This document shows positions 5,343 through 64,000 of a stretch of DNA of 64,000 nucleotides, in pieces. The notes below the pieces were generated by a model. The model did no database searches and had not been told where the DNA came from. It saw only the letters and a list, made by a program, of their open reading frames with translations. Positions within the stretch are counted from its first letter, which is position 1. Each line of letters starts with the position of its first letter. The position numbers and the translations under genes were made by a program. Source of the stretch: a virus; IMG/VR virus record IMGVR_UViG_3300005842_000485, positions 26,566 to 90,565 of that record; one strand, 5' to 3'.

Positions 5343-5609
5343 TCAGCGCGCAGCGTTATGGCCGGCAGGGGACAGGGCCGCTCGCGCCCGAGCTACATCC
5401 GCAAGCGTGACCTCGGTAACAGTGCCATCGGTAGCTTTCACGCGAATCGGAGCAATGTCGGCACGGAATGGTGGCTCTAGCTGCGCGATGGCGTCACAGA
5501 CGGCAACGAATGGGCGTAGCGCTTCGTCCTTCCGTTCGATCTCTTGTTCAAGCTTGGAAATACGGTCATCCAAATACCGTAACTCGATCTCATATGCGGT
5601 TTCACTCAC
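5343..5609 (-). CDS. Phage hypothetical protein
   Basis: Last gene of the overlapping minus-strand small-gene operon; EALRPF motif common in small phage ORFs. Confidence 0.6.
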   Translation of the reverse strand: MSETAYEIELRYLDDRISKLEQEIERKDEALRPFVAVCDAIAQLEPPFRADIAPIRVKATDGTVTEVTLADVARARAALSPAGHNAAR

Positions 5610-5874
5610 TTAGCTGTTGTGTAGGTAGTGAGAAGACGCTATAAGGATTCCGAGCAGCAAGCATGTCGGCGGCACCGTGTGTGATGCCCGTGCTTTCCTC
5701 TGCGATCTGGACGCACCGGTGGTAGCCCTGTTCCATCGCGTCACGGATCACAACCGTAAGGTTCTCCACAGCGATTTCACTTAGGTCATCCACAACGTTG
5801 CAATAGTAGTCCGCGTACTCTTCTGGTGTATGACAATCCGCGAGCGTCCGTGGTGTCTCTGATGGTTCAGTCAT
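5602..5874 (-). CDS. Phage hypothetical protein
   Basis: Translationally coupled ORF in the operon. Confidence 0.55.
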   Translation of the reverse strand: MTEPSETPRTLADCHTPEEYADYYCNVVDDLSEIAVENLTVVIRDAMEQGYHRCVQIAEESTGITHGAADMLAARNPYSVFSLPTQQLSE

Positions 5875-5953
5875 GGCGATGTAAATATAAGAATTGTTGT
5901 TACGATGGCGGCGGTGGCCAGAGCGACAATGTAGAGGACGTATTCTCTATTGG

Positions 5954-6226
5954 TCATGCTGCTTCTTCGGGAGGAGGAGAGGGGGGAAGGTCGCGCACTT
6001 TGTCTCCTTGGGGTGGGAATGCATCACTCGTCCATGCCGCATAAGCCATGCGCCAGTACCGCTCCGCTGTGTCACGCACTCGTGGCTCATCTTCCGCTAG
6101 GCGGGCAATCTCCTTCGCGTCATAGACGATGCCGTGCAAGTGCCAGTAGAGGCGCGTCGCCTCTTCCCTCGCCTTCCTGATCTCCTCGGCACAATCGTTA
6201 CAGTCCTTATGTTCCTCATGCGACAT
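5954..6226 (-). CDS. Phage hypothetical protein
   Basis: MSHEEHKDCNDC start just after the HNH gene stop. Confidence 0.5.
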   Translation of the reverse strand: MSHEEHKDCNDCAEEIRKAREEATRLYWHLHGIVYDAKEIARLAEDEPRVRDTAERYWRMAYAAWTSDAFPPQGDKVRDLPPSPPPEEAA

Positions 6227-6230
6227 CGGC

Positions 6231-6698
6231 TCAGTGGTTAGTGATCTGATTAAGCTTCGCGAACTCACCGTGAACCTTGCTGGCGAAGACGTTGTAGGAG
6301 AGTGCCGCCGCATCCTCCGTGTTGTGGTACTCCGTGATACGGCCATACGGCGTACGAATCTGCATCCTCCATTTCCCGCGCTTCGTCGGACTCACCCCGA
6401 GATGCCGGGACGCCCCACGTAGCTTTCGCCTATTCGCGTTGTTCTGCGCCAGCGTTGCCACGCGGAGGTTCGACCTTTGGTTGTTTAGACCGTTGCCGTC
6501 GATATGGTCTGTGAACATTCCAGATGGCGGCGGCAAGACCTCGCGGTGCATGTGGACGCGCTTCCCGCCTGCCACGCGGCGAGCATAGAACGTCCGATCC
6601 CTGTTCTTTTCAGCGAACCACTTGTAAGCAGAAAGACGTTCGTAACCAGCGTCGTCTACGAACGCGAACATATCCTGAGTTAGCGGGATGAGCATCAT
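6231..6698 (-). CDS. HNH homing endonuclease with AP2-like C-terminal DNA-binding domain
   Basis: IPLTQ..FAFVDD, MHREV, DHIDGNGLNNQRSNLR...QNNAN, GVS...KW, AALSYN...HGEFA.LN. Confidence 0.92.
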   Translation of the reverse strand: MMLIPLTQDMFAFVDDAGYERLSAYKWFAEKNRDRTFYARRVAGGKRVHMHREVLPPPSGMFTDHIDGNGLNNQRSNLRVATLAQNNANRRKLRGASRHLGVSPTKRGKWRMQIRTPYGRITEYHNTEDAAALSYNVFASKVHGEFAKLNQITNH

Positions 6699-6937
6699 GT
6701 GGAGCGGCGTTCAATGCGGATACCATCCTCAGCTTGTAACACCTCGTTTCTCAGCTTCTCAACCTCCTCCTGGTGCTCCTGCTCACGGTGATCGATGATC
6801 GAAAGTAGGAAGAGCATCTCGCGCCCGAGGTCAGCCAGAGATTCTTTCGGGGAGGTAGTAAGGTCAGCGGCGATGTCACGCAGCGCAGTAATCCGGTCTT
6901 GTTCTTTGGGGGTGGTGTCGTTACTTGGCATCAGCAA
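6695..6937 (-). CDS. Phage hypothetical protein
   Basis: Coupled ORF (ATGA overlap with the HNH gene). Confidence 0.5.
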   Translation of the reverse strand: MLMPSNDTTPKEQDRITALRDIAADLTTSPKESLADLGREMLFLLSIIDHREQEHQEEVEKLRNEVLQAEDGIRIERRST

Positions 6938-7223
6938 CAGAGTTATCTTTACAGTAGATGGCTCCTATAACTTGGTTCTCGATGTCCGTGCGGCTCTTAG
7001 AGAGATCGCTTATCGCCAAACGAGCGATGGAACGCACGAGTGTTCTGTCATCTGCGTCTCGTATCTCGCGAAGTGCTTCAAGTGCCCGGACGACTTTGAG
7101 GGGAGCAATCCAGCAATCTTCACAAACTCCCGTCTTAGCCTCCTCCGTGTGCCACGCCGCATATGGCTTGTCATATGCGCATATCAGACATGAGCCGTGT
7201 GGCAGCGTTAAACCTTCAGGCAT
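6921..7223 (-). CDS. Phage hypothetical protein with CxxC pairs
   Basis: CLIC...CEDC; C-rich leader. Confidence 0.5.
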   Translation of the reverse strand: MPEGLTLPHGSCLICAYDKPYAAWHTEEAKTGVCEDCWIAPLKVVRALEALREIRDADDRTLVRSIARLAISDLSKSRTDIENQVIGAIYCKDNSVADAK

Positions 7224-8396: not shown

Positions 8397-8675
8397 TTAG
8401 TTTGCGCGACCAATGATCTCGACGTTGGGCATGCACCCTTCATCGTCCGTGCGGCCCATGATATGGGTAGAGCATTCATAGCCGCTCTGGTGCTCCCAGT
8501 TGTACTCCCAGCCCCAGCCGCCGAGTTCACGGCGGACAACGAATGTACCGGTGCGCTCGCCTGTCGGACTATGCGGGTAATCGTTGCTGGCATCGACGCG
8601 CAGAATGTCACCTACTGTGATCTCGATACCGTTCTTGTCGTAGAGGCCCGTGCTATTCACGCTCTCCTGTGACAT
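8397..8675 (-). CDS. YopX family phage protein
   Basis: STGLYDKNGIEITVGDIL...VEIIG signature. Confidence 0.85.
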   Translation of the reverse strand: MSQESVNSTGLYDKNGIEITVGDILRVDASNDYPHSPTGERTGTFVVRRELGGWGWEYNWEHQSGYECSTHIMGRTDDEGCMPNVEIIGRAN

Positions 8676-8689
8676 AGGGGGATGGGTGG

Positions 8690-8917
8690 TTAGGAGATTG
8701 CCTGTGCCGCGATCCGCCGATTGATCTGGTTCATGCGCTCGATGGTGGCGACGTGTTTAGCGCACTCCTCTACGAGTTCCTGCTTCTCTCGCTGGAACTG
8801 ACGGATGACCTCGCAGAGCCACCGAACATCAGGGTTGCCGAGATCTGCGTCGTTGTGTTGCGCCCAAAACTCGATCCGTTCGAGGCGAGTCTCGATGTGT
8901 TCTGGTGCTGGTTCCAT
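8690..8917 (-). CDS. Phage hypothetical protein
   Basis: DVRWLCEVI followed by coiled coil; leader CACCTCCACCTCCC-ATG. Confidence 0.55.
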   Translation of the reverse strand: MEPAPEHIETRLERIEFWAQHNDADLGNPDVRWLCEVIRQFQREKQELVEECAKHVATIERMNQINRRIAAQAIS

Positions 8918-8931
8918 GGGAGGTGGAGGTG

Positions 8932-9084
8932 TTAGCCGCGCGACCACCCGCCGCCAACAAGGACGACGATGCCGGCAATGAGCGCGAGGACGCCGAGGAA
9001 GATCGACGGCACGGAGATATGGAATAGCTCGATGCATCCAATGAGGATGAGGTAGAGCCCGAGGGTGAGATTGGAGAGCGACAT
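8932..9084 (-). CDS. Small two-TM membrane peptide (50 aa, MSLSNLTLGLYLILIGCIELFHISVPSIFLGVLALIAGIVVLVGGGWSRG)
   Basis: Hand-translated; fills the gap in the operon; below the ORF track cutoff. Confidence 0.65.
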   Translation of the reverse strand: MSLSNLTLGLYLILIGCIELFHISVPSIFLGVLALIAGIVVLVGGGWSRG

Positions 9085-9096
9085 AGTGTGGAGCGG

Positions 9097-9354
9097 TTAG
9101 GATGACGACGGGATGGGCATGCCGGCTCGAGCGAGTTTCATCCGCACCGCCTCTCGGTAGCTCGTGCCTTCAGGGAGGAAGTAGAGCGTCGAGGTCGTGG
9201 CTATCGGCGGACGCGGATTCGGGGCGTCGCTTCCTGGGTAGCGCACTTCACAGGCGTCTTCCGTCACTGCGTCCCCGATCTCGACGAGATCATTGCTGCG
9301 GGTCAGGGCGTAGCGTGGCTCCGGTGTGTCGTCGGGGGTCTCACGCAGCGGCAT
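9097..9354 (-). CDS. Phage hypothetical protein
   Basis: MPLRETPDD start coupled to the upstream ORF. Confidence 0.5.
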   Translation of the reverse strand: MPLRETPDDTPEPRYALTRSNDLVEIGDAVTEDACEVRYPGSDAPNPRPPIATTSTLYFLPEGTSYREAVRMKLARAGMPIPSSS

Positions 9355-10249: not shown

Positions 10250-10777
10250 ATGCCGCGTTCACGGAAGCCGGGAACGACCGCCGCCGAGATACGTCCGGGA
10301 CAAGCCAGCTATGTGCTGGATCGGCTCATCAAGGACAAGCGCATCACGCCGTACGACATCCAGCGCTACGTCGCGGACATGGGGAAGGAGATCGACGAAC
10401 TCCAACGCCGACTTGATTCCTTGCGCACGGCGCATGCTCCCCAAGGGGTGCGTCGCGAACTCCCGCCGCCACCACCACCAACGCCACGCAAGCGCCGGCG
10501 TCGTCGTGCTCCGCTGCGCGCTGGGAGCGTCGTGCCGCCAGCAAGTTTGCCGGAGCGTCCGACACCCCCGGAACCACGAAAAGAGAAACAACCGCCATCG
10601 AAGAAGCCAGCTATGGGCGTGAGCGCTGAAACACTGGCCTCCCGGCAGCTCCAAGGTCGGTATTTGGCGCTCATCCGGCAGATTCCCGCACAGAAGCGCG
10701 CGCAGTACGCGAAGACAGCGAAGGAGAAGGGTCGCGAGGCGGCGATCAAGGAGATGCGTAATGCGCGTCGGAAGTAA
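10250..10777 (+). CDS. Basic hypothetical protein, possibly nucleic-acid binding
   Basis: Strong SD AAGGAG; coiled coil, Arg/Pro linker, C-terminal SRQLQGRYLALIRQIP...GREAAIKEM. Confidence 0.75.
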   Translation: MPRSRKPGTTAAEIRPGQASYVLDRLIKDKRITPYDIQRYVADMGKEIDELQRRLDSLRTAHAPQGVRRELPPPPPPTPRKRRRRRAPLRAGSVVPPASLPERPTPPEPRKEKQPPSKKPAMGVSAETLASRQLQGRYLALIRQIPAQKRAQYAKTAKEKGREAAIKEMRNARRK

Positions 10778-11807
10778 GGGAGACGGTCGGCGCCGGAACT
10801 GGCTCTTCGCGGTGGTGGCGCTTTGCGCCGTTGTTGTGCCGGCACTGGCGCAGGATGACCCGGTGCTCGCACAGCAGATGCCGCGTCATGATGGAACGTA
10901 CCAAGCACACGAAGCGGATCACCCGATGTACGGCGGGACGATTACGTTTCGGAAGCGCGGGGAGCATGCGGTGGGGATGTTTGCGACACCGTATGGATTG
11001 ATGTGCTACCAAGGAACGCTCTCAAGGGAGACGAACCGGGGTATCGGGGAAATCCAGGTCGCGGACGTTATCCGGCTCGAACACGATGCGACGACCAACG
11101 CCGCGCGGTTTGTGCCCGTCTACGAGAGCGACCGCGACCACTTCACGCCGCTGCGCTTCGGAACTCCGGTTGAGCTGTTCCCGAACCCCTATGCGTTGCT
11201 CGCGACGCCACCTGCTCTTATCGCGAGAGATACCGGGTGGCTGAATGAGTGCTCGAAGCATTACGGGGAGCCGGAAGAACCGCCTGCCCCGTGCGGCGAC
11301 CCGTCCCTCCGTGGCACGGAGCTGAATGAAGGGTCGATGAAGTACTTCGACTCGGAGCCTGTATGCACGTGGTATCAGACGCATGCATGCACGGTCGAGA
11401 ATGTATTCGCCGTCCTCCTCGCGACGCCGGCCGCCATCGGCCCACTTAGGAAGGATGTCGGGCAGCCGCAGGTCGTCGAGGATTGCGGGATGCTGCTTCT
11501 TGAATCGATTGGGGCCGACAACCGGATCAGAACGGAGATCGACGAACGGCACCACCTCATCCGAAACTACACACTCCCCGGTCACATCTTTTATCCCGGC
11601 AGCGTCATCCGGTTCGTCGTCGACATCAACAATCGCGTGGACATCAATACCGAGGGCCTCGGGACAGAGAACCTGCTGAAGAAAAGCGTGAACGAGGCGT
11701 TCGCGCTGTTCATCTGGAAGCGGCCGAACCAAGCGCTTCGGGACGCGTTCTTTGCGAAGTACGCGCCGCAGGCGAAGCCGAAGAAGAAGCCGACGCATAA
11801 AAAATAG
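10761..11807 (+). CDS. Secreted hypothetical protein, paralog A
   Basis: Signal peptide; shares WLN.C...EEPP, CTVENVF, VEDCG, NYTLPGH.F.PG with the next gene. Confidence 0.8.
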   Translation: MRVGSKGDGRRRNWLFAVVALCAVVVPALAQDDPVLAQQMPRHDGTYQAHEADHPMYGGTITFRKRGEHAVGMFATPYGLMCYQGTLSRETNRGIGEIQVADVIRLEHDATTNAARFVPVYESDRDHFTPLRFGTPVELFPNPYALLATPPALIARDTGWLNECSKHYGEPEEPPAPCGDPSLRGTELNEGSMKYFDSEPVCTWYQTHACTVENVFAVLLATPAAIGPLRKDVGQPQVVEDCGMLLLESIGADNRIRTEIDERHHLIRNYTLPGHIFYPGSVIRFVVDINNRVDINTEGLGTENLLKKSVNEAFALFIWKRPNQALRDAFFAKYAPQAKPKKKPTHKK

Positions 11808-11823
11808 CGGATCTGAAGGATGG

Positions 11824-12915
11824 ATGATGGCAACGAAACCCGTGCTGCGCCTTGTGGCTGCGATGTTCATTGTCATGGTGACGCTTGCCGCTGATGCTGC
11901 GACGAAGAAGAAGCCGGCCAAGACGCCGCCAAAGCCCGAAGCGAAGAAAGACCTGGCGCACACCACGAAAGACGGCGCATACACCGCGAACGGTTGGTAT
12001 CGACAGTTCTTGTACCGGGGAGTGACGTTTCAGAAGCACGGAACGAACGTCGTAGGCTTCACGGCCGACAACGCCAATGTCTACTGCTTTACGGGGACGG
12101 CGGAGGGAAACATCATCCACGTCGCAGATGCCGTGTCCTGGGAAGACGAGTACGACACCCATGGCAGCCAAACAGGAAAGTATCACTTCATCCCGCTTCG
12201 CGATGATGAGAAGCCAGATCTTCGCGAGTTTCGCATGACGGACGTGCTTGAGACGTTCCCGGAATATTACGTCGGCTGGATCAAGCAGAGTCCGGAGATC
12301 ATCAAGCGCGATGAGCGGTGGCTGAACGGATGTGTGGGGTACTTCCGGGGCGAGCGTCCTGCGGAGGTGGCAGAAGAACCGCCGCCATGCGATGACGAGC
12401 AACTTCGACCGGCCATGAAATCTGCCGGTCAGTGGCCGACGTATCTCACCCTGTTTCCCCATACGGTGTGTGAGGTGAAGGGCGATCAGAACTGCACGGT
12501 TGAAAACGTGTTCCGGCTGCTAGTTGAAAACCCAGCCGCGATCGGGCCAGCGAAAGACCCCGAGACGCAGACCGTCGAAGACTGCGGTGTCCTCGTGCTC
12601 GACTCGTTTAAGAATCTCCTGAGACCGAAGGAGGAAGAGCGCGCAGAGGACGACAATCTCATCAAGGTGGACATCGACGAGGAGCACCACCGCATCACCA
12701 ACTACACGCTGCCAGGGCATGTGTTCTGGCCGGGGCAGGTCATCCGCGAGATCGTGCTCAAAGACGGCAAGGTGGGCGTGAAAACCACGGGATATGGGCA
12801 CGAGGGCATCATCACGAAGTGGGTGGTGAACTTGATGACAGCAAACCCGGCGTGGGCCCGCTGCGACGATGTGCTGATCGAGGCCTACAAGCACACGTAT
12901 GGCGACAACGAGTAA
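11824..12915 (+). CDS. Secreted hypothetical protein, paralog B
   Basis: Signal peptide; same motifs as 10761-11807. Confidence 0.8.
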   Translation: MMATKPVLRLVAAMFIVMVTLAADAATKKKPAKTPPKPEAKKDLAHTTKDGAYTANGWYRQFLYRGVTFQKHGTNVVGFTADNANVYCFTGTAEGNIIHVADAVSWEDEYDTHGSQTGKYHFIPLRDDEKPDLREFRMTDVLETFPEYYVGWIKQSPEIIKRDERWLNGCVGYFRGERPAEVAEEPPPCDDEQLRPAMKSAGQWPTYLTLFPHTVCEVKGDQNCTVENVFRLLVENPAAIGPAKDPETQTVEDCGVLVLDSFKNLLRPKEEERAEDDNLIKVDIDEEHHRITNYTLPGHVFWPGQVIREIVLKDGKVGVKTTGYGHEGIITKWVVNLMTANPAWARCDDVLIEAYKHTYGDNE

Positions 12916-12956: not shown

Positions 12957-14063
12957 CTACGGGTCGAAGAACTCAAGCGCCGTGCCCTCGGCGTTCACAC
13001 GGATTTGTTGCAGCGGTGAGCCGAGACCACTGAGGCCAGTACCCCCGAAGTAAACGCTCAAGGGGGATGCGAAGACGAGCGCGGAAGCATCGACGGCCGG
13101 CAGCTGCGGGTTGAGTCCGTAGATTTGCCCACCGAGCGTCCCCCCGCCGTCCATGGTCATATTGGTGGACGACTCCGTGAAGACGATGGAGTTCCCTGCG
13201 GAGCCAGCGGCGACTGCTTGCACGGCGACATTGCCATCAGCCTGATCGAAGGCGGCAACGGTCACCAGATCGGCGTTGATCGCAGCGGCAATGTTCCCTC
13301 CGGCCTCCGCAGCGCTGGAGCCGATGGTGACTTCGCCGGTTCCTGTACGCGTGGCCTTCCACGTGAACGTCTGCGTGTCTACTACGAATGTCTCATCCGC
13401 TTCCGCCAATCCAGACATCGTGATGAGTCCCATCGCCTGCGCGGACGGCGAAAGCTGGACAATCTGATCGCCAGCAGTCCCAACATCAAGAAGCGCAGCC
13501 GTTCCGAGTCCTGTGATCTGCGCGGCGTTGATGGCAGTTACATTTGCCGCATCCACGTCAGGAAGCGCAGGGTCACGACCACCGTACAGGGTGCCTGATC
13601 CGCCCATCGAAGCGTTGGTGACCGACTCGGTGAAGACGATGCTGTTACCTGCGGCACCGGCTGTGACAGCCGTGATATTGACTACTTGGCCGATGTCGTT
13701 CACGACGGCAACGACGCTTGCAAGATCAGTGTTGATGGCATCAGCGATATTCGCCCTCGTCTCTGCGGCATCAGGCCCAATGGTGACCTCTCCTACCCCT
13801 GACCGAAGTTCCTTGAAGATGAAGGTTTGCGTATCGACAACAAACGTCTCATCGACAAGCGGAAGGCCATTGACACCGAAGGCACCTGCCGCCGCGATTG
13901 CCTCGGTGAGCTGTACGAGATCTCCAGAGCCATTGAAGGTATTGCCTTGAACCGTGACGTTTGCGGAGAGCCGAGCATCGCCCAGTGTCCCGGATGTCAG
14001 GTCAGAGGCGTCGGTCGAGCCACCACCTCCGCTCGATGGGGCCTGGGAGAGATTGATAGCCAT
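12957..14063 (-). CDS. Virion fibre/decoration protein with internally duplicated domain
   Basis: Two copies of DETFVVDTQTF..K..R.G.GEVTIG...AGNSIVFTES; C-terminus QQIRVNA.GTALEFF.P. Confidence 0.7.
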   Translation of the reverse strand: MAINLSQAPSSGGGGSTDASDLTSGTLGDARLSANVTVQGNTFNGSGDLVQLTEAIAAAGAFGVNGLPLVDETFVVDTQTFIFKELRSGVGEVTIGPDAAETRANIADAINTDLASVVAVVNDIGQVVNITAVTAGAAGNSIVFTESVTNASMGGSGTLYGGRDPALPDVDAANVTAINAAQITGLGTAALLDVGTAGDQIVQLSPSAQAMGLITMSGLAEADETFVVDTQTFTWKATRTGTGEVTIGSSAAEAGGNIAAAINADLVTVAAFDQADGNVAVQAVAAGSAGNSIVFTESSTNMTMDGGGTLGGQIYGLNPQLPAVDASALVFASPLSVYFGGTGLSGLGSPLQQIRVNAEGTALEFFDP

Positions 14064-14089
14064 GGCAGGGCAGGTGGGGAATCAGATGA

Positions 14090-14119
14090 AGCGTAGGGGC
14101 GGGCTATGGAAGCGGTCAA
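14090..14119 (-). promoter_or_regulatory. Late-type promoter
   Basis: TTGACC-N18-TACGCT; one of 5 similar copies. Confidence 0.65.
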
Positions 14120-14133
14120 CGCGTGCAGTTGTG

Positions 14134-19775: not shown

Positions 19776-19784
19776 AGGAAGGCG

Positions 19785-23225: not shown

Positions 23226-23235
23226 AAGGGAGGGA

Positions 23236-23478
23236 TTAGCGCTTCGCTCGGCGGGACTTCCGTTCGAGCGCTTCGAGCTCGGCTTCGGGGGATCGCGCTC
23301 TAGCCTTAGCTTGCGGCGTGTTCTCCGCCTCGGCAATCAGGATGCGACGGAACATCTGCACCTTCTCGGCCGGGAGCTGGTAGATGCCCACGCCGAACTC
23401 GCGCACCATGCGGAGTTCGTCGATGGCCGGATGGCCGTGGCCGCGCCTTACCGCTTCTTCGAGGTCTCTCCTTTTGGG
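23236..23478 (-). CDS. -1 frameshift extension of the tail assembly chaperone (gpT-like)
   Basis: Slippery C-CCA-AAA at 23472-23478; -1 frame open to TAA at 23236-23238 (PKRRDLEEAVRRGHGHPAIDELRMVREFG...). Confidence 0.8.
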   Translation of the reverse strand, partial: PKRRDLEEAVRRGHGHPAIDELRMVREFGVGIYQLPAEKVQMFRRILIAEAENTPQAKARARSPEAELEALERKSRRAKR

Positions 23479-23783: not shown

Positions 23784-23853
23784 GCGGAGGAAGGGTTGGT
23801 GGTAGACCGAGGCCGGGCGCGGGGCGGCGCATCCGCCCCTGCACCCTCTCTTC

Positions 23854-25074: not shown

Positions 25075-25076
25075 GG

Positions 25077-27211: not shown

Positions 27212-27212
27212 T

Positions 27213-54947: not shown

Positions 54948-55432
54948 GCGTTCTCCTTCTGTAGATCGCGGAGCCAGTACGTGAGGGCTGCTGGGCGGTC
55001 GAGCGCGTAGGCGGGGACGCTGGAGTTGCCGTCGTCTTCCGTTTTGTCGATGCCGGCCGAGTGATACGACGGGTACTCGTGGGAGAGTGCGCGGATCGCC
55101 CGGTCAATGTCGGGTGCGGGGATGCCGTGGGCTTCAAAGAGCAGACGCAACCCCGCCTCTTTCGTCGCGCCGACGAAGAAGCGCTTGTCGTTCGTGCCAT
55201 CGAAGTACGCAGGCTTCCATGCGGTGAAGACGCGGCGGTTGCCGTCCTTTGCGACGATCAGTTCCCAGTTCTTTTCAGGGAGATCATCTTTCGTGAGCGG
55301 TGCCGTCCCGAAAACTTGCACCATCGCCCACTTGTCGTAGCGAACGCGGTAGCCACGGATCAGGTAGAACGACTTGCCATTGATCTGGACATACTTCGTC
55401 CCGTCGATGTCGAAGGTACGCATCGTAGGCAC
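54944..55432 (-). CDS. Hypothetical protein coupled to the DarB-like gene
   Basis: ATGA overlap. Confidence 0.65.
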   Translation of the reverse strand: MPTMRTFDIDGTKYVQINGKSFYLIRGYRVRYDKWAMVQVFGTAPLTKDDLPEKNWELIVAKDGNRRVFTAWKPAYFDGTNDKRFFVGATKEAGLRLLFEAHGIPAPDIDRAIRALSHEYPSYHSAGIDKTEDDGNSSVPAYALDRPAALTYWLRDLQKENA

Positions 55433-58015: not shown

Positions 58016-59158
58016 TCACGCGACGAAGAGGGGCAGGCGAAGCGTCATCGGCCGGTCGTCTTTGCGGCCGGTGACTTGTGAGAACACGGGCGCGGTAATG
58101 CGAGACGCGAGATGGGCAAAGATCGGCGTCCCGTCTGCAACGGGCAGGTCTTTCAGGAAATGATCGCGGCTCCACTTCTCTCCGGTGGGCTCGTCTCCTA
58201 AGTGGAGATCAGCGGAACGGGTCATGAGGAAGAGGCCCGTTCCTTTCTTGGGAAGCTTTTCGGAAATCACGTCTTCAATCATCCGCGCGTGCGCGTCCGT
58301 CTGACAGTGGAAGAGCACGCGGAATGAGGTCATCCCATGCGCGCCGGTCATTGCCGCGACGCTTTCAACGCCTTTCTCGCGGTTGAGGAGCAAGTACCGA
58401 TCAACCTTCTCGATGATCTTGTGTCGCGCGGATGTTCCCGTCTCTGCTTCCAGCGCGAAGCCGAACTCTCCGATGGTGAAGAACCCGTCCGGCTCGATGG
58501 TCTGGCGCTTGCCGTCATGCTCAAAGGAGAGGTTCACGGCACCGTCCCCAAGGATGTTCTCGACCGCCGCGCCCATCTGCCGGGCACCGAACCAAAGAAT
58601 CGAGAGCACTGTGGAGGCGAGGATGCGGTGGCGCACATCGGAGGGCTCGTCGCTGATGAACTTCAAGGCGAGGTCGGTGTTGTATTGGAGCATGGCGTCC
58701 ACGCGATCCGCAGGGAGTCCTTGTTCCGTGAGCATCTCAAGGAGCCGCTTGCGAAGCGGGGCTGCGGTCTTCGCCACCGCCTCGGCTTGTTCGTCTGGAA
58801 GCGCGAGGTAGTGCATCCGGAGGCGGGCGACTTCTTGGGCGCGCCCCGTTTCGAGCGTGTAATAGAAATGCCGGGAGCCGGGGAGGTAGCGCCCGAACTT
58901 CGGGTCGAAGCGGGAGAGCCAGCGCGCATTGAAGAGTGCCGTGAGGCGCTTGATCCAGTTCACCATGCCGAGTTCCCCGCTGGCATACGCGGAGAGGTAG
59001 AGCGCTTGCGCCTTCGCAAATCGCAGGTGGAAGAGATCGACCAGCACCGCAATATCACGCGCCTGGAGGACGAGCGAGCGCGGCGCGGACGGGTGGTAGC
59101 GGGATCGGCGCGTGGGGAGAGACATGCGTGGAGACGCGAGGGGATCAGCGCTAGTCAT
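58016..59158 (-). CDS. Replication-relaxation (Replic_Relax) family protein
   Basis: LQARDIAVL..L...RF, RL..L, HRI, IEPDGFF, FALEAETGT, KV.RY, FRVLF. Confidence 0.8.
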   Translation of the reverse strand: MTSADPLASPRMSLPTRRSRYHPSAPRSLVLQARDIAVLVDLFHLRFAKAQALYLSAYASGELGMVNWIKRLTALFNARWLSRFDPKFGRYLPGSRHFYYTLETGRAQEVARLRMHYLALPDEQAEAVAKTAAPLRKRLLEMLTEQGLPADRVDAMLQYNTDLALKFISDEPSDVRHRILASTVLSILWFGARQMGAAVENILGDGAVNLSFEHDGKRQTIEPDGFFTIGEFGFALEAETGTSARHKIIEKVDRYLLLNREKGVESVAAMTGAHGMTSFRVLFHCQTDAHARMIEDVISEKLPKKGTGLFLMTRSADLHLGDEPTGEKWSRDHFLKDLPVADGTPIFAHLASRITAPVFSQVTGRKDDRPMTLRLPLFVA

Positions 59159-60747
59159 GCGGGCGTCTCGCCTCCTTCGTCAACGGCGGTACGTCGCTTC
59201 GGGTCTTTCCTTCCCCGGTCTTTCCGCGTCTTCGGGAGTTGCGGGGCGTCGGTCACGGGTGGAGGTGCAGTCTCCGCGTGCACGGGCGGTGTGAAGCGTT
59301 CTTCGACATGCAGCCGCACAAACTGAATGCGGTGGGCCTCTCGCGCGAGATCCCGGTGCTCCGGATTGATGGTCTTGTAACGATGCCGAACGCGGATCGC
59401 ACGGGCGGACGGATCGATGTGGTACGCCGTTCCGATGGGAAGCTCGAGGAGGCGGAGCGCGTGGGCATCAAGCGCTTCAGTAATCCGGACGCGCTCCTCG
59501 CCAGTCACCGTTCCTGCGGCTCCGCCATCCGAGGACATGTCGTTGTCGCCACTCATGCCGGCCGCCCAGGTTGCGGAGGTGGTCTTTGTGAGGGTCGGTA
59601 GCCGGGCTGCGGTCAGAGAGACACGCCGAAGGTGCGTCGCGATCTGGCGCGCGGACTCAAAGGTGCCAGGGCGGAAGAACACCAAGTGCTGCATGGCGGA
59701 GAGAATCTCGTCGTAGTGCGCGCCGCGATCTCCAATCTGTCGTCCGGTCTGGAAGAGGAACCAGTGGTAATCGGAGCGGTTGCGCGCCATCGCGACATGA
59801 AGGGCGTAGAGATCAGCGTTCATCCCTTGCTGCTCATCGACGACGACGAGGGACGGACGATTCGATGCGCGTGAGGCAAGGAACGCGTTCCTGATGCCGT
59901 AGAGCGCACGGCGGAAGATGCCTGCGGTGGTGGGGTTTGCATCCGCTGGATCGACGAGGAGTACACCGCCTCGGGAGTGGAACGCGCCGTAGTCGATGCT
60001 GTCCCGCCGGAAGAAGGACGCGTACTCCAGCGTGAGCCACGCGAAGTTTCTCCGCGTCGAACCCGTGAGGACATTGAACTGCACGGGGCTTCGCTGCGTG
60101 GTGTAGTACAGCTCATTGAGGACATCGAGTTGCGCCCGGACATAGGCATCACGGTGACCGTGACGGTCGATGTCGATCCAAAGCTGGACGCGGTACGCCT
60201 CATCTCCATGCGTGAGCACTGACGCAAGCTCGGTGACGGGGCGGTGCCCGGCAACCAAAGCAGCGAAGGCGGCCGATCCGTACGTGTGGACAAGGCGGTA
60301 GTCCTCGCTGCCTTCCGTCGTATGCGCGAGGGTCGCCATGATCGCGGAGACGCGTTCATGCACGGTTTCAAACCGAGGGAACCCGTGGGCGTCGATCTTG
60401 GGGCGCAGCTTCGCGAGGTCGAAGGACAGCCCGCTCTCGTTCTCCGGCTGGACGCGAAGATGCAGGATGCGCGAACGCATGCGTCGCATGTCGGCGCCCG
60501 CCTCCTCGCGCCGCTCGATCCAGCCGTAGAGCCGGGCGGCGAGATCGGCGGCGAGCGTACCGATGCCATCGAGGACGAGCATCGGAACCTCGGGGCGCTT
60601 GCGGAACAGGTAGGCCAAGCACTCGCGCGCCACAGAGGTCTTTCCGGAGCCGCTCGCGCCCTCGAAGAGGTGGTGCCGCAACAGGTGTTCGGGCGAACGC
60701 GCGTAGATGCGATGGGACGGCGTTTCGCCAAGGGCAAGCGCGGTCAT
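59155..60747 (-). CDS. VirD4/TraG-like P-loop ATPase
   Basis: HHLFEGASGSGKT (Walker A), LVVVDEQQ (Walker B), FQ...QI. Confidence 0.8.
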   Translation of the reverse strand: MTALALGETPSHRIYARSPEHLLRHHLFEGASGSGKTSVARECLAYLFRKRPEVPMLVLDGIGTLAADLAARLYGWIERREEAGADMRRMRSRILHLRVQPENESGLSFDLAKLRPKIDAHGFPRFETVHERVSAIMATLAHTTEGSEDYRLVHTYGSAAFAALVAGHRPVTELASVLTHGDEAYRVQLWIDIDRHGHRDAYVRAQLDVLNELYYTTQRSPVQFNVLTGSTRRNFAWLTLEYASFFRRDSIDYGAFHSRGGVLLVDPADANPTTAGIFRRALYGIRNAFLASRASNRPSLVVVDEQQGMNADLYALHVAMARNRSDYHWFLFQTGRQIGDRGAHYDEILSAMQHLVFFRPGTFESARQIATHLRRVSLTAARLPTLTKTTSATWAAGMSGDNDMSSDGGAAGTVTGEERVRITEALDAHALRLLELPIGTAYHIDPSARAIRVRHRYKTINPEHRDLAREAHRIQFVRLHVEERFTPPVHAETAPPPVTDAPQLPKTRKDRGRKDPKRRTAVDEGGETPA

Positions 60748-61124
60748 AGCTCCTCGTCCTCCTCCATCAACTGCTGCCGGAGTCTCGTGTTGGAAGCTTC
60801 GGATTCCGCGAGCTGGCGTTTGAGCCGGTCGAGTTCTGACCGTTGGGCGACGCGGGCAAGCGTGGCTTCAAGCGGCGCGTCGAGCGCACGTTCGCGCTGT
60901 TCAACAGCAAGCTCGGCGAGCCTCACGCGCGCCTTGGCTTCTGCCTGCTTCGCGTGCTCCTCCTCGATCATGGTCGTGAGCCGTTCGTTCGCGAGGTTCG
61001 TGAGGATGGGCGCGAGCCGTCGTGCGCCTTCAAGCGCCCGTTCTCGGTACTCGATGAGGGCATCCGTGCGGATGAGTTCCAGTTCCACGGTGGCCCGCCG
61101 CTGAAGGAGATCGGCGTCCATCAC
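60744..61124 (-). CDS. Coiled-coil hypothetical protein
   Basis: Coupled in the operon. Confidence 0.65.
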   Translation of the reverse strand: MMDADLLQRRATVELELIRTDALIEYRERALEGARRLAPILTNLANERLTTMIEEEHAKQAEAKARVRLAELAVEQRERALDAPLEATLARVAQRSELDRLKRQLAESEASNTRLRQQLMEEDEEL

Positions 61125-62152
61125 CGCTTTCCTTGAGGCGAGAAGGACGTCGGGTCAACGTAGGCATCACCGAGGAGTCGACGCAGTTCCTTGTCGAGTT
61201 GCGCGGCGTAGTCTTGTCGCCTGTGGAGGAGCGCTTCGCGCTCGCGCACCTCGTCCCATGGACGGCGCGCAAGCTCGCGCGCGTGGGCCACCTGCCGTTG
61301 TCGTTGCCGCTCCTTCCACGCGAGCACCGAGGCCACCAGGAACCCCGTGACGAGCAGGCCGGCGAAGCCTCCGAGACACCACGCGAACGCCCGCGTCTCC
61401 GCGTTCCAAAACGGCTTCGTGAAGAGCGGTGGAACCGGCCTCCCGGCCTGCTCGCAGCGATCCGCGTATGCACGGCGGAGCAGCCGCGCAGCGTTGGCAT
61501 CCGGCCCGTACTCTTCGCCGAGGAGCGGCGCACCGAGCGCGGTTCCGATCCAGTGGTAATCCCCGCGAGCGGGGATGAATCCTCCGTCGTGCATATGGAG
61601 ATGTGTACTCGGGTCGAAGAGGTACAGATCGGCCGCGTCATCCGAGGACACCAGCACCCCGATGACCGGCGCAGGCGCGAACGCCGGATCAACCACCGTC
61701 GCTCCGTTCCAGGCCACGGGTGTCACGATGTGCGGAAACGCCCGATCGTGGAGGTGCTCTCCAGGAATCGAGAACCCGGCAAGCGGATCGCCCGACAGAC
61801 CGCGCATGAAGCCGAGGGTCATCAGCAGCGCGAGGCACCCGAGCACGCGTCGCACCTGCGCCGCCACGGATAAGGACGCCGCGTCGGGCGCATGCCCGAC
61901 TTCGATCCGATGACCCCGGAGCACCAGCGATGGGGCGATAGCCGTGGCGCTTGTTGCCACGGGCGTCGGATCGAAGTCGGGAACCGGAGGCCGGGTGATT
62001 CTTCCGGCCGGAGGAGCCCGACGCGGCCAAACGGGAGTCAGGACAAGCACGTTCCGAAGAAGCATCGGAAGCACACTCCGGTCGTGAACGCGGGCGAGAT
62101 AGCCGGCGAGCCGCGACGTGACAGGCGACGGACGAGTGCGGGCGGCCATCAT
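61121..62152 (-). CDS. Membrane protein with two TM segments
   Basis: Coupled in the relaxase/ATPase operon. Confidence 0.65.
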   Translation of the reverse strand: MMAARTRPSPVTSRLAGYLARVHDRSVLPMLLRNVLVLTPVWPRRAPPAGRITRPPVPDFDPTPVATSATAIAPSLVLRGHRIEVGHAPDAASLSVAAQVRRVLGCLALLMTLGFMRGLSGDPLAGFSIPGEHLHDRAFPHIVTPVAWNGATVVDPAFAPAPVIGVLVSSDDAADLYLFDPSTHLHMHDGGFIPARGDYHWIGTALGAPLLGEEYGPDANAARLLRRAYADRCEQAGRPVPPLFTKPFWNAETRAFAWCLGGFAGLLVTGFLVASVLAWKERQRQRQVAHARELARRPWDEVREREALLHRRQDYAAQLDKELRRLLGDAYVDPTSFSPQGKR

Positions 62153-62337
62153 GCGCTCGCGGGGCGCTCGGCGGGTTCAGCGGACTTGGGGCGCTTCGTC
62201 AGGGTGGCGAATTGGCCCATGGCGTACTGCGCGATCTTGCGGGCCGCTTCAGTGGAGGCAGCGGTGTCTTCAATCGTGCGCGCGTCGGAGTAACTGAAGT
62301 CGGGGCCTTCAATGATGACGGAGAGGGGCTTGCTCAT
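62149..62337 (-). CDS. Small hypothetical protein
   Basis: SD GAAAGGA; first gene of the operon. Confidence 0.5.
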   Translation of the reverse strand: MSKPLSVIIEGPDFSYSDARTIEDTAASTEAARKIAQYAMGQFATLTKRPKSAEPAERPASA

Positions 62338-62534
62338 CTGGCGTTCCTTTCGGTTGTCCCGAACGCGATATGCGACGGGAGCGTGAAGGAAGCGTGCAGG
62401 ACGAGCGGCGGTGGCTGTCGAAGCACGTCGAAGGGAGGCGATTGGCGGGGAGTCCCGGGACGGCTACGGTGGGAGTGCGGCCCTTTTCCAACCAGGAACC
62501 CTACTACCGCACCGGCAAGGCACGAGGAGGCGAT

Positions 62535-63215
62535 ATGCCCACGCAGCGGTATCTCTTCGACCAGATGAACGAAGCGCAGGGGGCGATCCTGCGTGACGAG
62601 GAGCCGTCGTATCGGCTATTCGAGCACGGCAGCGCAACGCTCTCCGATTCGGAACTCGTCGCGCTTGTGACCGGTCGGCCTGTAGAGGAAGCACGGATGT
62701 TCCTTCGAGACGGCCTGCCGTCGTTTGCGCGACGTCCATGGGGTGCGGGCCGGCGGCACCAGATCGGGAGGACGGTCGCTGTGCGGATCGCCGCGAGCTT
62801 GGAGCTTGGGCGGCGCGTGGCGATGGCGACCATCGAGTTTGGCGACACCGTATGTGTTGAGGACTTGGGGCCGTTCCTCGCAACCCGCTACGGTGATGCG
62901 GTGCAAGAGCACTTCGGCGCCGCATTTCTCAATGCGCGCCGGGGGATGATCGCACTCCGAGAACTGTGCGTCGGGACGCTGAACTCCGCGCTGGTCTCTC
63001 CACGTGAGGTCTTGCGGAGCGCGCTCGAACTCCATGCCGCAGGGATCATCGCGTACCACAACCATCCAAGCGGCGACCCGTCACCATCAGTCGAAGATCT
63101 CACCGTGACGATGAAGCTGCGGAACGCAGCCAAGAACATGGACATCGACTTCATCGACCACGTGATCGTGGCGAAGCGTCGGTACTACTCCATGGCCAAG
63201 CACGGGCACTTCTAA
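62535..63215 (+). CDS. radC: RadC family JAB-domain protein
   Basis: LSDSELVAL, ELGRR, GTLN..LVSPREV, HNHPSGDPSPS.ED, DHVIV; SD GAGGAGG. Confidence 0.93.
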   Translation: MPTQRYLFDQMNEAQGAILRDEEPSYRLFEHGSATLSDSELVALVTGRPVEEARMFLRDGLPSFARRPWGAGRRHQIGRTVAVRIAASLELGRRVAMATIEFGDTVCVEDLGPFLATRYGDAVQEHFGAAFLNARRGMIALRELCVGTLNSALVSPREVLRSALELHAAGIIAYHNHPSGDPSPSVEDLTVTMKLRNAAKNMDIDFIDHVIVAKRRYYSMAKHGHF

Positions 63216-63225
63216 AGGAGGAGCG

Positions 63226-63543
63226 ATGCAAGCACAGCATGTGTTTCTAAACCTCTTCCATGGGCGGAGCGATCCGTACGCAGAGATGGAAGACTGGGGT
63301 GAGCTAGGACCGATCCTCGGCCCGCTCAAGTACGTGCACGTCACGTACAACTCGTACATCCACATCAGCTTCGACGGCGCGGACTTCGACCTGACGTTCA
63401 CGAACGATTGCGTCGCCTATGACGGCGCGTTCTACGGCGACTTCAGCGTCTTCGCCGAAGCGACGGCGGACGATCCTGACGTGCGCTCCCGGCGCGAAGA
63501 CCCCGCAGTCAGCATGGCGAAGCTCATCGAGCAGCGCCGCTAA
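63226..63543 (+). CDS. Hypothetical protein
   Basis: SD AAGGAGG; LFHGR.DP...MEDWG..GP..GP...YDG.FYGDF. Confidence 0.75.
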   Translation: MQAQHVFLNLFHGRSDPYAEMEDWGELGPILGPLKYVHVTYNSYIHISFDGADFDLTFTNDCVAYDGAFYGDFSVFAEATADDPDVRSRREDPAVSMAKLIEQRR

Positions 63544-63592
63544 CCAGCCGGTTCCCGGCTGCAACCCCCCGACATCTGAAAGGAGACCGGCG

Positions 63593-64000
63593 ATGAGTAT
63601 CGCATCGCGGTTGAAGGACGTGCGCAAAGGCGCAGGACTCAGCGAAAAGGAGCTGGCGCGGCTCTCCGGCGTCCATGAAAAAACGATCAGTTCCTACGAG
63701 TCTGGTCGGCGTATCGGACGCATGAAGATTGAGCACTTGGTGAAGATGCTTGCCGTGATCGGCATGTCGCTGCCGGTGTTCTTCATGAGCGTGGACGAGG
63801 AGCGGGAGACGGTAGCGATGAATGCGGAAGACGGCCCTGCATTCCGGTTCTTTGACCGGTTCATGGCGCTCCCGGAAGACACGCAGCGCGCGCTCCTTCC
63901 GGCGTTTCATTTGCTGACCGACATCGTGGAGTCCCGTGACGCGCGGCGCGCGGTCGCCGATCCGCTGACGGCGGTGAAATCGCTCGCGCGCGTGGGGTAG
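63593..64000 (+). CDS. XRE-family HTH transcriptional regulator
   Basis: RLKDVRKGAGLSEKELARLSGV...TISSYESG; SD GAAAGGAG. Confidence 0.9.
   Translation: MSIASRLKDVRKGAGLSEKELARLSGVHEKTISSYESGRRIGRMKIEHLVKMLAVIGMSLPVFFMSVDEERETVAMNAEDGPAFRFFDRFMALPEDTQRALLPAFHLLTDIVESRDARRAVADPLTAVKSLARVG

Follow-up and report, generated by a model that had tools for sequence, protein, structure and literature searches.

Gene content of the prophage

The stretch of DNA analyzed here (the window, 64,000 nucleotides) makes up most of a temperate, siphovirus-like prophage that comes from soil and is recorded in IMG/VR as a provirus of 90,565 bp, with the first bases of the record falling within an integrase gene. 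The GC content is 61% along the whole length of the element. The 90.5-kb contig that holds the window is denoted G000, and two diverged relatives, with portal identities of 60% and 43%, are denoted G001 and G002. Genes were called with a home-made caller that employs a 3-periodic Markov model and does not use RBS information. Leaders were assigned to a C-rich class (at most 3 G and at least 8 C within -20 to -1; these thresholds are arbitrary) or to a strict SD class (5-mer core at a spacing of 3-12). Among the 67 genes called in the window, 26 have C-rich leaders, 13 have strict SD sites and 28 have neither.

Four small genes on the minus strand (8397..9354; 92, 75, 50, and 85 aa) each carry a C-rich, G-poor leader (TCCTAACCACCCATCCCCCT, GGCTAACACCTCCACCTCCC, CATCCTAACCGCTCCACACT, and CATCCTTCCCATCGACGAAG) with TAA as the upstream stop codon. 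An SD-led cassette on the opposite, plus strand (10250..12915), with starts at 10250 (AGAAGGAG), 10761 (AAGGAG) and about 11824 (GAAGGA), has no match in Pfam, PADLOC or PHROGs and no orthologue in G001. The tail module (12957..25768, minus strand), in which 11 of the 12 called genes have C-rich leaders, consists of genes of 368, 708, and 780 aa, a Prophage_tail-like gene and the genes for the tape measure protein (19785-22709) and a minor tail protein (23854-25074); the orthologues of this module in G001 and G002 retain the C-rich leaders. All six genes of the head-proximal module (26813..30399, minus strand) are C-rich-led, namely four genes at 26813-27154, 27275-27898, 27971-28297, and 28323-28601 and those for the major head protein (28677-29588) and the scaffold (29608-30399), and the N-termini of the products line up with those of G001 from residue 1. 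A promoter-like repeat, TTGACC-N17-GTAGCGT, occurs on the minus strand at 27182..27211 and, upstream of the start at 27898, at 27929..27958 (2 matches in the window vs. 0.02 expected), and G001 has copies at the orthologous places. The copy at 27182..27211 ends about 28 nt ahead of the start at 27154, so that the predicted 5′ UTR barely exceeds the C-rich tract.

The minus-strand genes for head morphogenesis (32397-33206), the portal (33210-34691) and the large terminase (34749-36155) have no SD; with 4 G, the C-rich leader of the portal gene (TTCCCCCGCACCACGC) falls just beyond the threshold. Within the head module lies an SD-led gene (31326..32249, minus strand; GAAGGAG-N5-ATG; GC3 0.64) that encodes a low-complexity protein with a signal peptide and belongs to no PADLOC or Pfam family. 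This gene is an insertion, given that it is missing from G001 between orthologous flanking head genes, and is accordingly moron-like.

The variable island adjoining the terminase (38311..44868, plus strand) contains the SD-led genes 38311-38880, 40768-41580, 43023-43529, and 44455-44868, interspersed with minus-strand genes that include the C-rich-led 41585-42208. The matching position in G001 is occupied by a non-orthologous SD-led island with DruA and GHKL-ATPase genes. Farther to the right, a 435-aa gene (46101..47408, minus strand) has a C-rich leader containing CACCTCCTAACC. An SD-led pair on the same strand (51468..55423) comprises a 159-aa gene (54944-55423; AAAGGAG) and the gene for a 1159-aa protein with an N6-methylase and an SNF2 helicase in a DarB-like layout (51468-54947; GAAGGAG); the pair has orthologues in G001, where the leader of the 159-aa gene is C-rich. 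C-rich leaders also precede an 81-aa gene (TCACCTCCCACCTCCG) and a Replic_Relax-domain gene (58016-59125) in the minus-strand segment 57295..59125. The right arm (59155..64000) is mainly SD-led and includes a 530-aa ATPase-like gene (start 60747; GGAGGAGG), genes 60744-61121 and 62149-62337, RadC (start 62535; GAGGAGG), 63226-63543 (AAAGGAGGAG) and an HTH gene (63593; AAAGGAG) that extends past the end of the window. G001 has a right arm that is likewise SD-led and in synteny with this one.

Two classes of leaders

A preliminary description of this DNA had pointed to two interleaved leader styles in one element, quoting five C-rich starts, all on the minus strand (8675, 14063, 23783, 29588, and 34691), and nine SD-led starts (10250, 32249, 38311, 43023, 54947, 60747, 62535, 63226, and 63593). 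All 14 starts and leaders are found in the sequence as written, save for one extra C at 29588, and the RBS-blind gene calls bear out the coexistence of the two styles; the caller picked different starts for three genes (10250, 32249, and 62535). Over the whole contig, C-rich leaders precede 38 of the 104 genes, compared with 4.1% of 1,608 internal ATG/GTG controls (p = 5e-26), and strict SD sites precede 17 of the 104, compared with 3.0% (p = 2e-8). The respective counts are 44/126 and 19/126 in G001 and 26/70 and 8/70 in G002, with control values across the three genomes of 4.1-5.4% for C-rich leaders (p from 1e-15 to 1e-28) and 3-6% for SD sites. The classes form clusters yet interleave along the element, as is apparent from the class strings. 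Because about half of the genes (148 of 300) fall outside both classes, the two styles are to be regarded as two enriched tails rather than a clean dichotomy. In eleven comparator loci, C-rich leaders amount to 0-9%: none among 157 genes in six other phage loci (GC 38-63%), and 7 among 160 genes in plasmid stretches of Granulicella, Cupriavidus, Gemmatirosa, and Singulisphaera together with phage KS14.

The C-rich leader is a start-anchored tract of 15-20 nt that is nearly G-free, with about 55-65% C, only 20-25% A and no SD; CACC is mildly enriched around -15 to -9. The G-poor tract is confined to -20 to -1: in the 38 C-rich leaders with spacers of at least 60 nt, the G content is 27-33% at -60 to -35, 11% at -20 to -16 and 4-7% at -15 to -1, and it is back to normal past the start codon of the C-rich-led genes. 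The mean MFE of the region from -30 to +21 is -6.4 kcal/mol for C-rich leaders, vs. -11.0 for SD leaders and -11.6 for the rest (p = 7e-10 and 4e-16). In 80 of 108 cases, no other start codon of the ORF precedes the C-rich start. However, G-free runs of at least 14 nt are frequent genome-wide (282 in G000, only 14 of which end at a called start), which makes the C-rich tract a signal in the statistical sense rather than a unique site.

The two classes differ in their placement within operons. C-rich leaders are found on 62 of 111 genes behind spacers of 1-100 nt but only on 7 of 42 first genes (p = 1e-5), whereas SD sites are found on 13 of 42 operon-first genes vs. 31 of 258 others (p = 0.004). 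The stop codon TAA accounts for 36 of 57 stops within 25 nt of the next start and for 35 of 143 farther stops (p = 5e-7). Genomes that use SD may likewise have TAA ahead of a nearby next start, and one study reports that, in short spacers, the choice of stop codon may be affected by the SD motif (PMC2784483).

Conservation and origin of the two gene sets

The reciprocal best hits between G000 and G001 include 12 pairs with C-rich leaders on both sides (the N-termini agree in 10 of these), 4 pairs with SD on both sides and one SD/C-rich pair; between G000 and G002, 10 orthologous pairs are C-rich on both sides. Given that the dual pattern is present also in relatives this distant, it is old and maintained. 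The SD-led genes belong chiefly to the integrase-proximal arm and to variable islands on the opposite strand. In the lysogeny arm of G001, duplex energy puts the first 7 called genes, as well as 11 of the last 12, into the SD class; the integrase is one of these genes. The central SD-led island of this genome carries the genes for DruA, a pair of GHKL ATPases, and HTH (Cro/C1-type) and S24 proteins. The association of lysogeny with SD has exceptions: no SD is called for the S24 repressor-like gene at 63448-64260 of G001, the Replic_Relax gene has a C-rich leader within the SD-rich right arm of G000, and one G000-G001 orthologue pair has switched leader class.

The division into a phage backbone and SD-led cargo that was proposed earlier holds only in part. 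The SD-led genes are more often operon-first and less conserved, and one of them (31326-32249) is inserted, but SD-led arms are syntenic in G001. Moreover, the difference in conservation is modest: among genes of at least 100 aa, 17 of 38 SD-led and 53 of 78 C-rich-led ones are conserved among the relatives (p = 0.025). With nearly half of the SD-led genes conserved and the arms syntenic, the SD class is not just recent cargo.

The preliminary description further suggested that a phage of an SD-poor phylum, such as Patescibacteria, gained SD-led cargo across phyla through a host jump or an episymbiont-host shuttle. The presence of two genuine, interleaved leader styles agrees with this scenario, as does the atypically low GC3 at 7490-8152 (0.61), 57657-57968 (0.57), 31326-32249 (0.64), and 55547-56770 (0.64), but the low-GC3 genes occur in both leader classes. 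Neither GC nor GC3 separates the two sets in G000 (0.768 vs. 0.754, p = 0.56) or in G001 (p = 0.31). The cargo genes of this scenario (DarB-like, relaxase-like ATPase, RadC, and HTH) each have an orthologue in synteny in G001. The supposedly Patescibacteria-like gene 7490-8152 has 56% GC, and the Atlas clusters nearest to it, which are under the 0.9 lead threshold, are viral. The best cultured match of the portal is from an Acidobacteriota phage (30% identity), and the others are from Pseudomonadota phages. Nor is the assembly chimeric at the class junctions, which are crossed by contigs from an independent sample (run X2; 31835-34790, 36937-41736, and 42030-46343) at even depth and without any difference. 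A cross-phylum jump or shuttle is thus very improbable, and the leader split looks like an old design and not like the trace of a host jump.

Two proposed expression programs in one phage lineage

The split between the leader classes is statistically real, anchored at the start codon, conserved in two diverged relatives and not caused by a chimeric assembly. Because the same host ribosomes read both classes, the two signals would represent two expression programs rather than two phylogenetic origins. Our preferred explanation, which on the sequence data we give about an even chance of being correct, is that a single phage lineage uses C-rich leaders for lytic operons and SD for lysogeny, defense, and moron genes. 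The C-rich, SD-less leaders would serve the long operons for tail, head, lysis and replication along with the small early genes. Canonical SD sites at normal spacing would serve the genes that a prophage expresses on its own, namely those of the integrase-proximal and maintenance arm (with the genes for the relaxase-like ATPase, RadC, and HTH), those of the variable islands on the opposite strand and genes inserted singly. The C-rich leaders may function as SD-independent sites of ribosome entry or re-initiation. A C-rich leader without G cannot form stable structure, nor can a G-free leader hold ATG, GTG, or TTG, so that the first start codon met by the ribosome would be the right one. In the short intercistronic spacers where most of these leaders are located, ribosomes would come from the upstream cistron; leaders behind the promoter-like repeat would require de novo ribosome binding. 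Transient pairing of the C-rich tract with G-rich segments of 16S rRNA may help, by analogy with the in vitro data of Barendt et al. (2012).

It is hardly credible that wrong starts, strand compositional skew or a chimeric assembly mimic a second class. The caller is indeed home-made, and the minus strand, the sense strand of most lytic genes, is richer in C than the plus strand (GC skew 0.03-0.14), but internal ATG/GTG codons on the same sense strands reach only 4%, the comparator loci yield next to no C-rich leaders with the same caller, orthologue N-termini agree, early genes of the left arm on the plus strand are C-rich-led too, and independent contigs bridge the junctions. Instead of being ribosome signals, the tracts could bind another factor, such as Rho (as rut-like RNA with C>G) or a regulator that recognizes RNA, or could belong to a transcription signal. 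Rho prefers C-rich, G-poor RNA, and the tracts are located between cistrons of long operons; however, rut sites are several times longer than ~20 nt, whereas the G depletion spans only about 20 nt and stops exactly at the start codon even in long spacers, and G000, G001, and G002 encode no KH, CSD, S1, S21, or IF3 domain, which makes this reading unlikely.

A further alternative, possible although not probable, is that the phage mirrors an SD-poor host lineage in which many ordinary genes have C-rich, SD-less leaders; the phage core would have adapted to this host, and the SD-led genes would be mobile cassettes that move from element to element and keep their own strong SD. Such a host is compatible with published data on SD usage, which ranges by bacterial class from 10% to 86% (Spartobacteria 10%, Gemmatimonadetes 22%, Blastocatellia 32%, Acidobacteriia 45%; PMC10783764), with the GeneMarkS-2 "group X" genomes, described as having no pronounced start signals (10.1101/193490), and with the statement of Barendt et al. 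that the hosts of phages with C-rich UTRs have C-richer UTR profiles (PMC3310771). The lower conservation of the SD-led genes and their location in variable islands also fit. Three observations count against this alternative but are not decisive, given that the sampled stretches do not include the true host. C-rich leaders amount to 0-9% in stretches from three soil phyla and a Burkholderiales megaplasmid (1/26, 1/30, 4/44, and 0/25). In G001, strong SDs are used by the integrase and throughout the att-proximal arm, although these genes must function in an uninfected lysogen. GC3 is equal in both classes.

Comparison with known systems

Phage morons and the variable defense islands of prophages are a concept associated with Hendrix and Juhala. 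The SD-led genes resemble them in that they frequently lie on the opposite strand, come first in their unit, match no family and have no counterpart in the relatives; the difference is that 17 of the 38 are conserved and whole SD-led arms are syntenic. Phage T4 encodes the endoribonuclease RegB, which cleaves early mRNAs at the GGAG of their SD sites and is a precedent for a phage sorting gene classes by GGAG in the initiation region. No RegB-like or other translation-modifying gene was recognized in this phage, and the link is offered only as an idea.

Barendt, Shah, Barendt and Sarkar (2012, PLoS Genet; PMC3310771) applied ribosome display to a reconstituted E. coli system and thereby selected C-rich RBSs; their paper also describes single C-rich 5′ UTRs in phages KS14, Nigel, and Syn5, suggests late-gene use and finds the selected RBSs inefficient in E. 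coli cells. Like the leaders of this prophage, these RBSs are cytosine-rich sequences of 18-20 nt before the AUG, without an SD, and the KS14 example, gp24, is the sole C-rich leader that our caller finds in KS14. However, the published examples are the single most C-rich UTR of each phage, whereas here about 36% of the genes of the phage clade have such leaders, which are conserved between orthologues. Barendt et al. report no position dependence and no selection against structure; the signal described here is anchored at -20 to -1, with a CACC peak at -15 to -9 and much weaker folding. The A/U-rich unstructured leaders of Bacteroidota and cyanobacteria (GeneMarkS-2 groups B and X; 10.1101/193490) are similar in that the mRNAs are leadered, a start-proximal compositional signal replaces the SD and a functional anti-SD may remain in the cell. 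That signal, however, is A-rich and host genome-wide, whereas the one described here is C-rich and belongs to a phage of 61% GC, alongside strong SDs in the same element.

The two leader classes

Genes were called with a self-trained 3-periodic Markov model from which ribosome-site information was excluded because circularity had to be avoided, and the 20 nt preceding each start were taken as the leader. Leaders with at most three G and at least eight C were classed as C-rich. A strict Shine-Dalgarno (SD) site was defined as AAGGA, AGGAG, GGAGG or GAGGT placed with its end 3-12 nt upstream of the start; this core-plus-spacing rule replaced a duplex-energy criterion (dG <= -6) that proved too lax, being reached by 13-18% of controls, but that still underlies the GC3 comparison and the arm counts of the relative G001 reported below. 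Genes for which the record offers less than 30 nt of upstream sequence, including the truncated integrase gene of the complete 90,565-bp record (G000), were left out of the counts, and the loci L003 and L005 were left out of the analysis because they are fragments of the group of a second relative, G002.

The preliminary description had proposed two interleaved styles of translation initiation, and this observation is confirmed: every leader quoted there is present in the sequence, the nine SD sites named were verified, and C-rich and SD classes alternate in runs along the element. Among the 67 genes of the window, 26 have C-rich leaders, 13 have strict SD sites and 28 have neither. Across G000, C-rich leaders precede 38 of 104 genes, whereas on the same sense strands such a leader precedes 4.1% of 1,608 internal ATG/GTG codons (p=5e-26); strict SD sites precede 17 of 104 genes, compared with 3.0% of the control codons (p=2e-8). 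The two styles are the two tails of the gene set, with almost half of the genes in neither.

Conservation in diverged relatives

The portal protein has 38 homologues in the protein collection, 13 of them with 50-65% identity. Two relatives were analyzed in detail, namely G001, a 97-kb provirus inside a 751-kb metagenome contig (portal 60% identical), where it occupies, by offset, about 624,186-721,358 of the 751,278 bp of Ga0111539_10000004, and G002, a 68-kb record (portal 43% identical). The same C-rich/SD split is found in both: C-rich leaders precede 44/126 genes in G001 and 26/70 in G002, and strict SD sites 19/126 (3.4% in controls) and 8/70 (5.9% in controls), respectively. G000 and G001 share 46 reciprocal best hits; the leader is C-rich in both members of 12 of these pairs and a strict SD in both members of 4, with a single outright class switch; 10 G000-G002 pairs are C-rich in both. 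Among genes of at least 100 aa, those with C-rich leaders are more often conserved in a relative than SD-led ones (53/78 vs 17/38; p=0.025).

Composition of the C-rich leader

In the 108 C-rich leaders pooled from the three genomes, G accounts for 3-11% and C for 50-67% of the bases from about -19 to -1, so that, as in C-rich non-SD ribosome binding sites, some 18 nt before the start are cytosine-rich and an SD is absent. The tract keeps a fixed position next to the start codon: in the 38 C-rich leaders that follow a spacer of at least 60 nt, G falls from 27-33% at -60..-35 to 11% at -20..-16 and 4-7% at -15..-1, and returns to normal 3' of the start codon. The mean folding energy of the -30..+21 region is -6.4 kcal/mol in the C-rich class vs -11.0 and -11.6 kcal/mol in the other classes. 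The stop codon is TAA in 36/57 cases when it lies within 25 nt of the next start and in 35/143 elsewhere, an excess that fits avoidance of G, although SD-using genomes may show a similar bias.

Words that exceed the expectation from composition are CACC, CCACC and TCACC, all modestly; CACC occurs in 65 C-rich leaders vs 44 expected from shuffles, a count reached by none of 500 shuffles, with its maximum at about -15..-9. The longer word CACCTCC is present in 4/38 G000 leaders (0.7 expected), and CCTCC occurs 22 times across the C-rich leaders overall vs 17.9 expected. A copy of the 16S anti-SD is rejected as a feature of the clade, given that CACCTCC is missing from all 70 leaders of the relatives (0/44 in G001 and 0/26 in G002).

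Several known types of leader or signal do not describe these tracts. The Bacteroidota-type A-rich leader carries its motif about 3-9 nt before the start, and A amounts to 11-27% at -15..-1 in the C-rich class. Coupling by stop/start overlap would apply to few genes, the spacer being zero or negative in 15 of 108 C-rich-led genes, with a median of 33 nt. A rut site, the loading site of Rho, is an unstructured region of several tens of nucleotides with more C than G that is independent of start codons; here, the depletion of G is restricted to -20..-1 and stops at the start codon. As a separate observation, a gene-free 0.9-kb locus to the left of the window (contig positions 18581-19474, in the G000 stretch L011) contains GGTGA five times vs 1.8 expected, three of these within SD-like GAGGTGA or GGAGGTGA contexts, and lacks GGTGG; this excess was judged too small to build a trans-acting RNA upon.

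Gene-calling and assembly controls

The C-rich class is not a general product of the gene caller: applied to six comparator phage loci (GC 38-63%), among them Tunturiibacter phage Tunturi_4, the best cultured relative by portal, the same procedure yielded C-rich leaders for 0/157 genes. The annotated starts of Tunturi_4 were also inspected, and the six comparators amount to about four independent ones because L006-L008 are near-identical to each other. In Granulicella, Cupriavidus, Gemmatirosa and Singulisphaera plasmid stretches together with Burkholderia phage KS14, the same caller gave 7/160 C-rich leaders; annotated Granulicella starts were likewise inspected. The C-rich start is the first start codon of its reading frame in 80/108 cases, and 10 of 12 G000-G001 orthologue pairs have matching N-termini.

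Chimeric assembly, raised earlier as a possible source of the junctions between the two styles, is excluded for 27000-46999. This 20-kb region has even depth in Logan contigs of a sequencing run from another sample and study (X2), and contigs of this run span 31835-34790, 36937-41736 and 42030-46343 with 0 differences, crossing several C-rich/SD junctions.

The element and its genes

In IMG/VR, the single 90,565-bp record is classed as a provirus; the window comprises its bases 26,566-90,565. Its GC content is about 60% throughout; ARAGORN detected no tRNA, no rRNA was found in the 90,565-bp record, and no Rfam family reached its gathering score in the window. The record start truncates a tyrosine integrase gene, and the left arm further encodes DnaB, a weak RepB-primase-like protein and an M15 peptidase. 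The minus-strand morphogenesis block of the window is of the siphovirus type and consists of genes for the large terminase (34749-36155), portal (33210-34691), a head morphogenesis protein (32397-33206), scaffold (29608-30399), major head protein (28677-29588), minor tail protein (23854-25074), tape measure protein (19785-22709) and a Prophage_tail-like protein (16261-17436). Within this block, a 207-aa protein of PHROG 5207 (function unknown; 27275-27898, minus strand) shares 90% identity with its G001 orthologue across 162 aa, the neighboring orthologues being 40-70% identical, which points to recent exchange or unusually strong constraint.

Elsewhere, the window encodes an N4/N6 methylase fused to an Mrr-type nuclease (441-2237), an S1/P1 nuclease (4360-5331), an ArdC-like protein (44896-45807, minus strand), a 1159-aa protein combining an N6-methylase and an SNF2 helicase in a DarB-like layout (51468-54947), a second, N4/N6 DNA methylase (55547-56770, minus strand; Pfam E=2e-45), a Replic_Relax protein (58016-59125, minus strand), RadC and an HTH protein. 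The second methylase is probably a recent acquisition because its GC3 is low (0.64), its start is ill-defined and it was overlooked by the Markov caller.

Genomic location of the two styles

C-rich leaders are typical of genes within long operons, preceding 62 of 111 genes behind spacers of 1-100 nt but only 7 of 42 first genes; SD sites show the opposite trend (13/42 first genes vs 31/258 others). In G001, the lax duplex-energy rule puts the integrase gene and the other six of the first seven called genes, as well as 11 of the last 12, in the SD class; were the genome circularized, both arms would be joined in a single block surrounding the attachment site. In both G000 and G001, the terminase is adjoined by an SD-led island on the opposite strand, with unrelated contents. 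The G001 island (54356-64260; record stretches L017 14356-19655 and L018 615-4260) encodes two GHKL-type ATPases, a DruA-domain protein, a Cro/C1-type HTH protein and an S24 peptidase-domain protein and looks like a defense-plus-immunity island. The proteins of the window island are ORFans, without a family match; among ten SD-led window proteins, PADLOC assigned no family to nine and PHROGs none to all ten.

Inside the head module, the SD-led gene 31326-32249 (minus strand) encodes a signal-peptide protein with long low-complexity stretches rich in Gly, Ser, Pro and Lys, and has a GC3 of 0.64. In G001, the orthologues of 30591-31199 and 32397-33206 enclose no counterpart of it, so that this is an extra gene between conserved genes that is absent in a relative, as morons are, and a candidate lysogenic-conversion or exclusion moron. 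The SD-led arms differ from morons in this respect, being syntenic between relatives. A promoter and a terminator of its own are also expected of a moron; the consensus scan for such signals, which covered 1-14500, found no sigma-70-like sites there, with terminator-like sites at chance level.

Some C-rich tracts lie about 28 nt 3' of a repeat, TTGACC-N17-GTAGCGT, that occurs twice in the window (27182-27211 and 27929-27958) vs 0.02 copies expected by chance. Further copies are found in the left arm (8068-8096 and 9516-9545 of the G000 stretch L012) and at orthologous positions of G001 (8103-8131 of its stretch L016 and 5594-5623 of L017), all, like those of the window, on the minus strand. 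The repeat is probably a phage-specific promoter, perhaps a late one.

Host mirroring, cross-lineage transfer and the host search

The coexistence of two styles had been tentatively attributed to a phage backbone from an SD-poor lineage carrying cargo from an SD-using host, by a jump across phyla or by shuttling between host and episymbiont. The division into backbone and cargo is partly right, as the moron candidate and the islands of unrelated content illustrate, but several of the supposed cargo genes, encoding the DarB-like protein, a 530-aa ATPase in a relaxase-like block, RadC and the HTH protein, have syntenic G001 orthologues with 33-61% identity. By the lax SD rule, neither GC nor GC3 differs between the leader classes in G000 (GC3 0.768 vs 0.754, p=0.56) or G001 (p=0.31), and GC3 of the SD class is somewhat lower in G002 (0.832 vs 0.894, p=0.012); the handful of low-GC3 genes is spread over both classes. 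The gene 7490-8152, thought to resemble Patescibacteria, has a GC content of 56%, and its nearest Atlas clusters are viral, with sub-threshold scores. Taken together with the conservation of the split in diverged relatives, these results argue against a recent transfer of either kind. Leader style should not be taken for a mark of foreign origin.

A more serious alternative is that the C-rich style mirrors an SD-poor host and is not private to the phage. Published figures for SD usage run from 10% in some bacterial classes to 86% in others (PMC10783764), and it is this wide range that keeps host mirroring a serious rival. The balance leans towards a phage-specific programme, given how strong the SDs of the integrase arm and the defense islands are and how rarely C-rich leaders occur in the sampled comparators.

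The identical portal protein is present on four contigs, the longest of 526,312 bp; two scans of genome contigs found no relatives, and the metagenome scan returned only 21 kb, inside the related prophage on the 751-kb contig. The ends of G000 and G001 contain integrase, RadC, HTH and unnamed genes, with no recognizable host housekeeping genes. In tblastn searches against plasmids, the 530-aa ATPase had no match, DnaB matched many phyla at up to 44% identity, matches to the DarB-like protein were confined to its helicase part (up to 26%), and the ArdC-like protein matched mainly Actinomycetota (36-39% identity); none of these matches amounts to a host call. The ArdC-like matches, along with the Replic_Relax gene, give a weak hint at a host in Terrabacteria. 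The Atlas search with the portal recovered viral and Pseudomonadota clusters only, and the 11 matching sequencing runs listed are all DNA-type rhizosphere or soil samples.

A possible mechanism and its precedents

A tract without G can form no G-C or G-U pairs and contain no ATG, GTG or TTG, and the only stop codon possible in it is TAA. It could accordingly present ribosomes with an open runway that is free of start codons and leads up to the true one. Because the majority of tracts lie between cistrons, ribosomes that finish the upstream gene might re-initiate there; behind the promoter-like repeat, where the 5' UTR would be little longer than the tract itself, ribosomes would have to bind de novo. 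That the C-rich leader drives initiation is inferred from its anchoring to conserved starts. None of the three genomes encodes S21, S1, cold-shock (CSD), KH_1 or IF3_C domains.

A bolder and, in our estimate, rather improbable version is that C-rich leaders constitute a private, SD-independent channel for all lytic genes in an SD-using host, with lysogeny, defense and moron genes remaining on the SD channel of the host. Were this so, lytic translation would be shielded both from leaky read-through expression in the lysogen and from any shutdown of SD initiation during lytic growth by the phage or by host defense (RegB of T4, for instance, cuts GGAG), and the phage would be the first natural case of an entire viral programme running on C-rich ribosome binding sites in vivo.

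Gene finders based on SD scoring will mis-start such phage genes. The lineage also makes several questions testable, namely whether C-rich leaders recruit ribosomes de novo or support re-initiation only, whether they need S1 or pairing with rRNA, and whether they keep lytic and lysogenic expression apart.

Initiation without an SD is common on leadered mRNAs but poorly understood, and the clade-conserved dual design of translation initiation in this temperate soil phage is a variant of known non-SD initiation that, at this scale, is undescribed in the literature searched: no phage or genome with systematic C-rich leaders is reported there except in PMC3310771. The closest precedent is the set of C-rich, non-SD ribosome binding sites obtained by ribosome display with E. 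coli ribosomes in vitro, for which pairing to G-rich 16S segments was proposed (Barendt et al., 2012; PMC3310771). The same source points to isolated cases of C-rich UTRs among phages (KS14, Nigel and Syn5) and suggests use in late genes. C-rich sites of this kind were so far a curiosity of in vitro work, backed by such single natural anecdotes; the lineage described here supplies about 100 natural C-rich leaders, anchored to start codons and kept between orthologues, with SD sites alongside as a built-in control.
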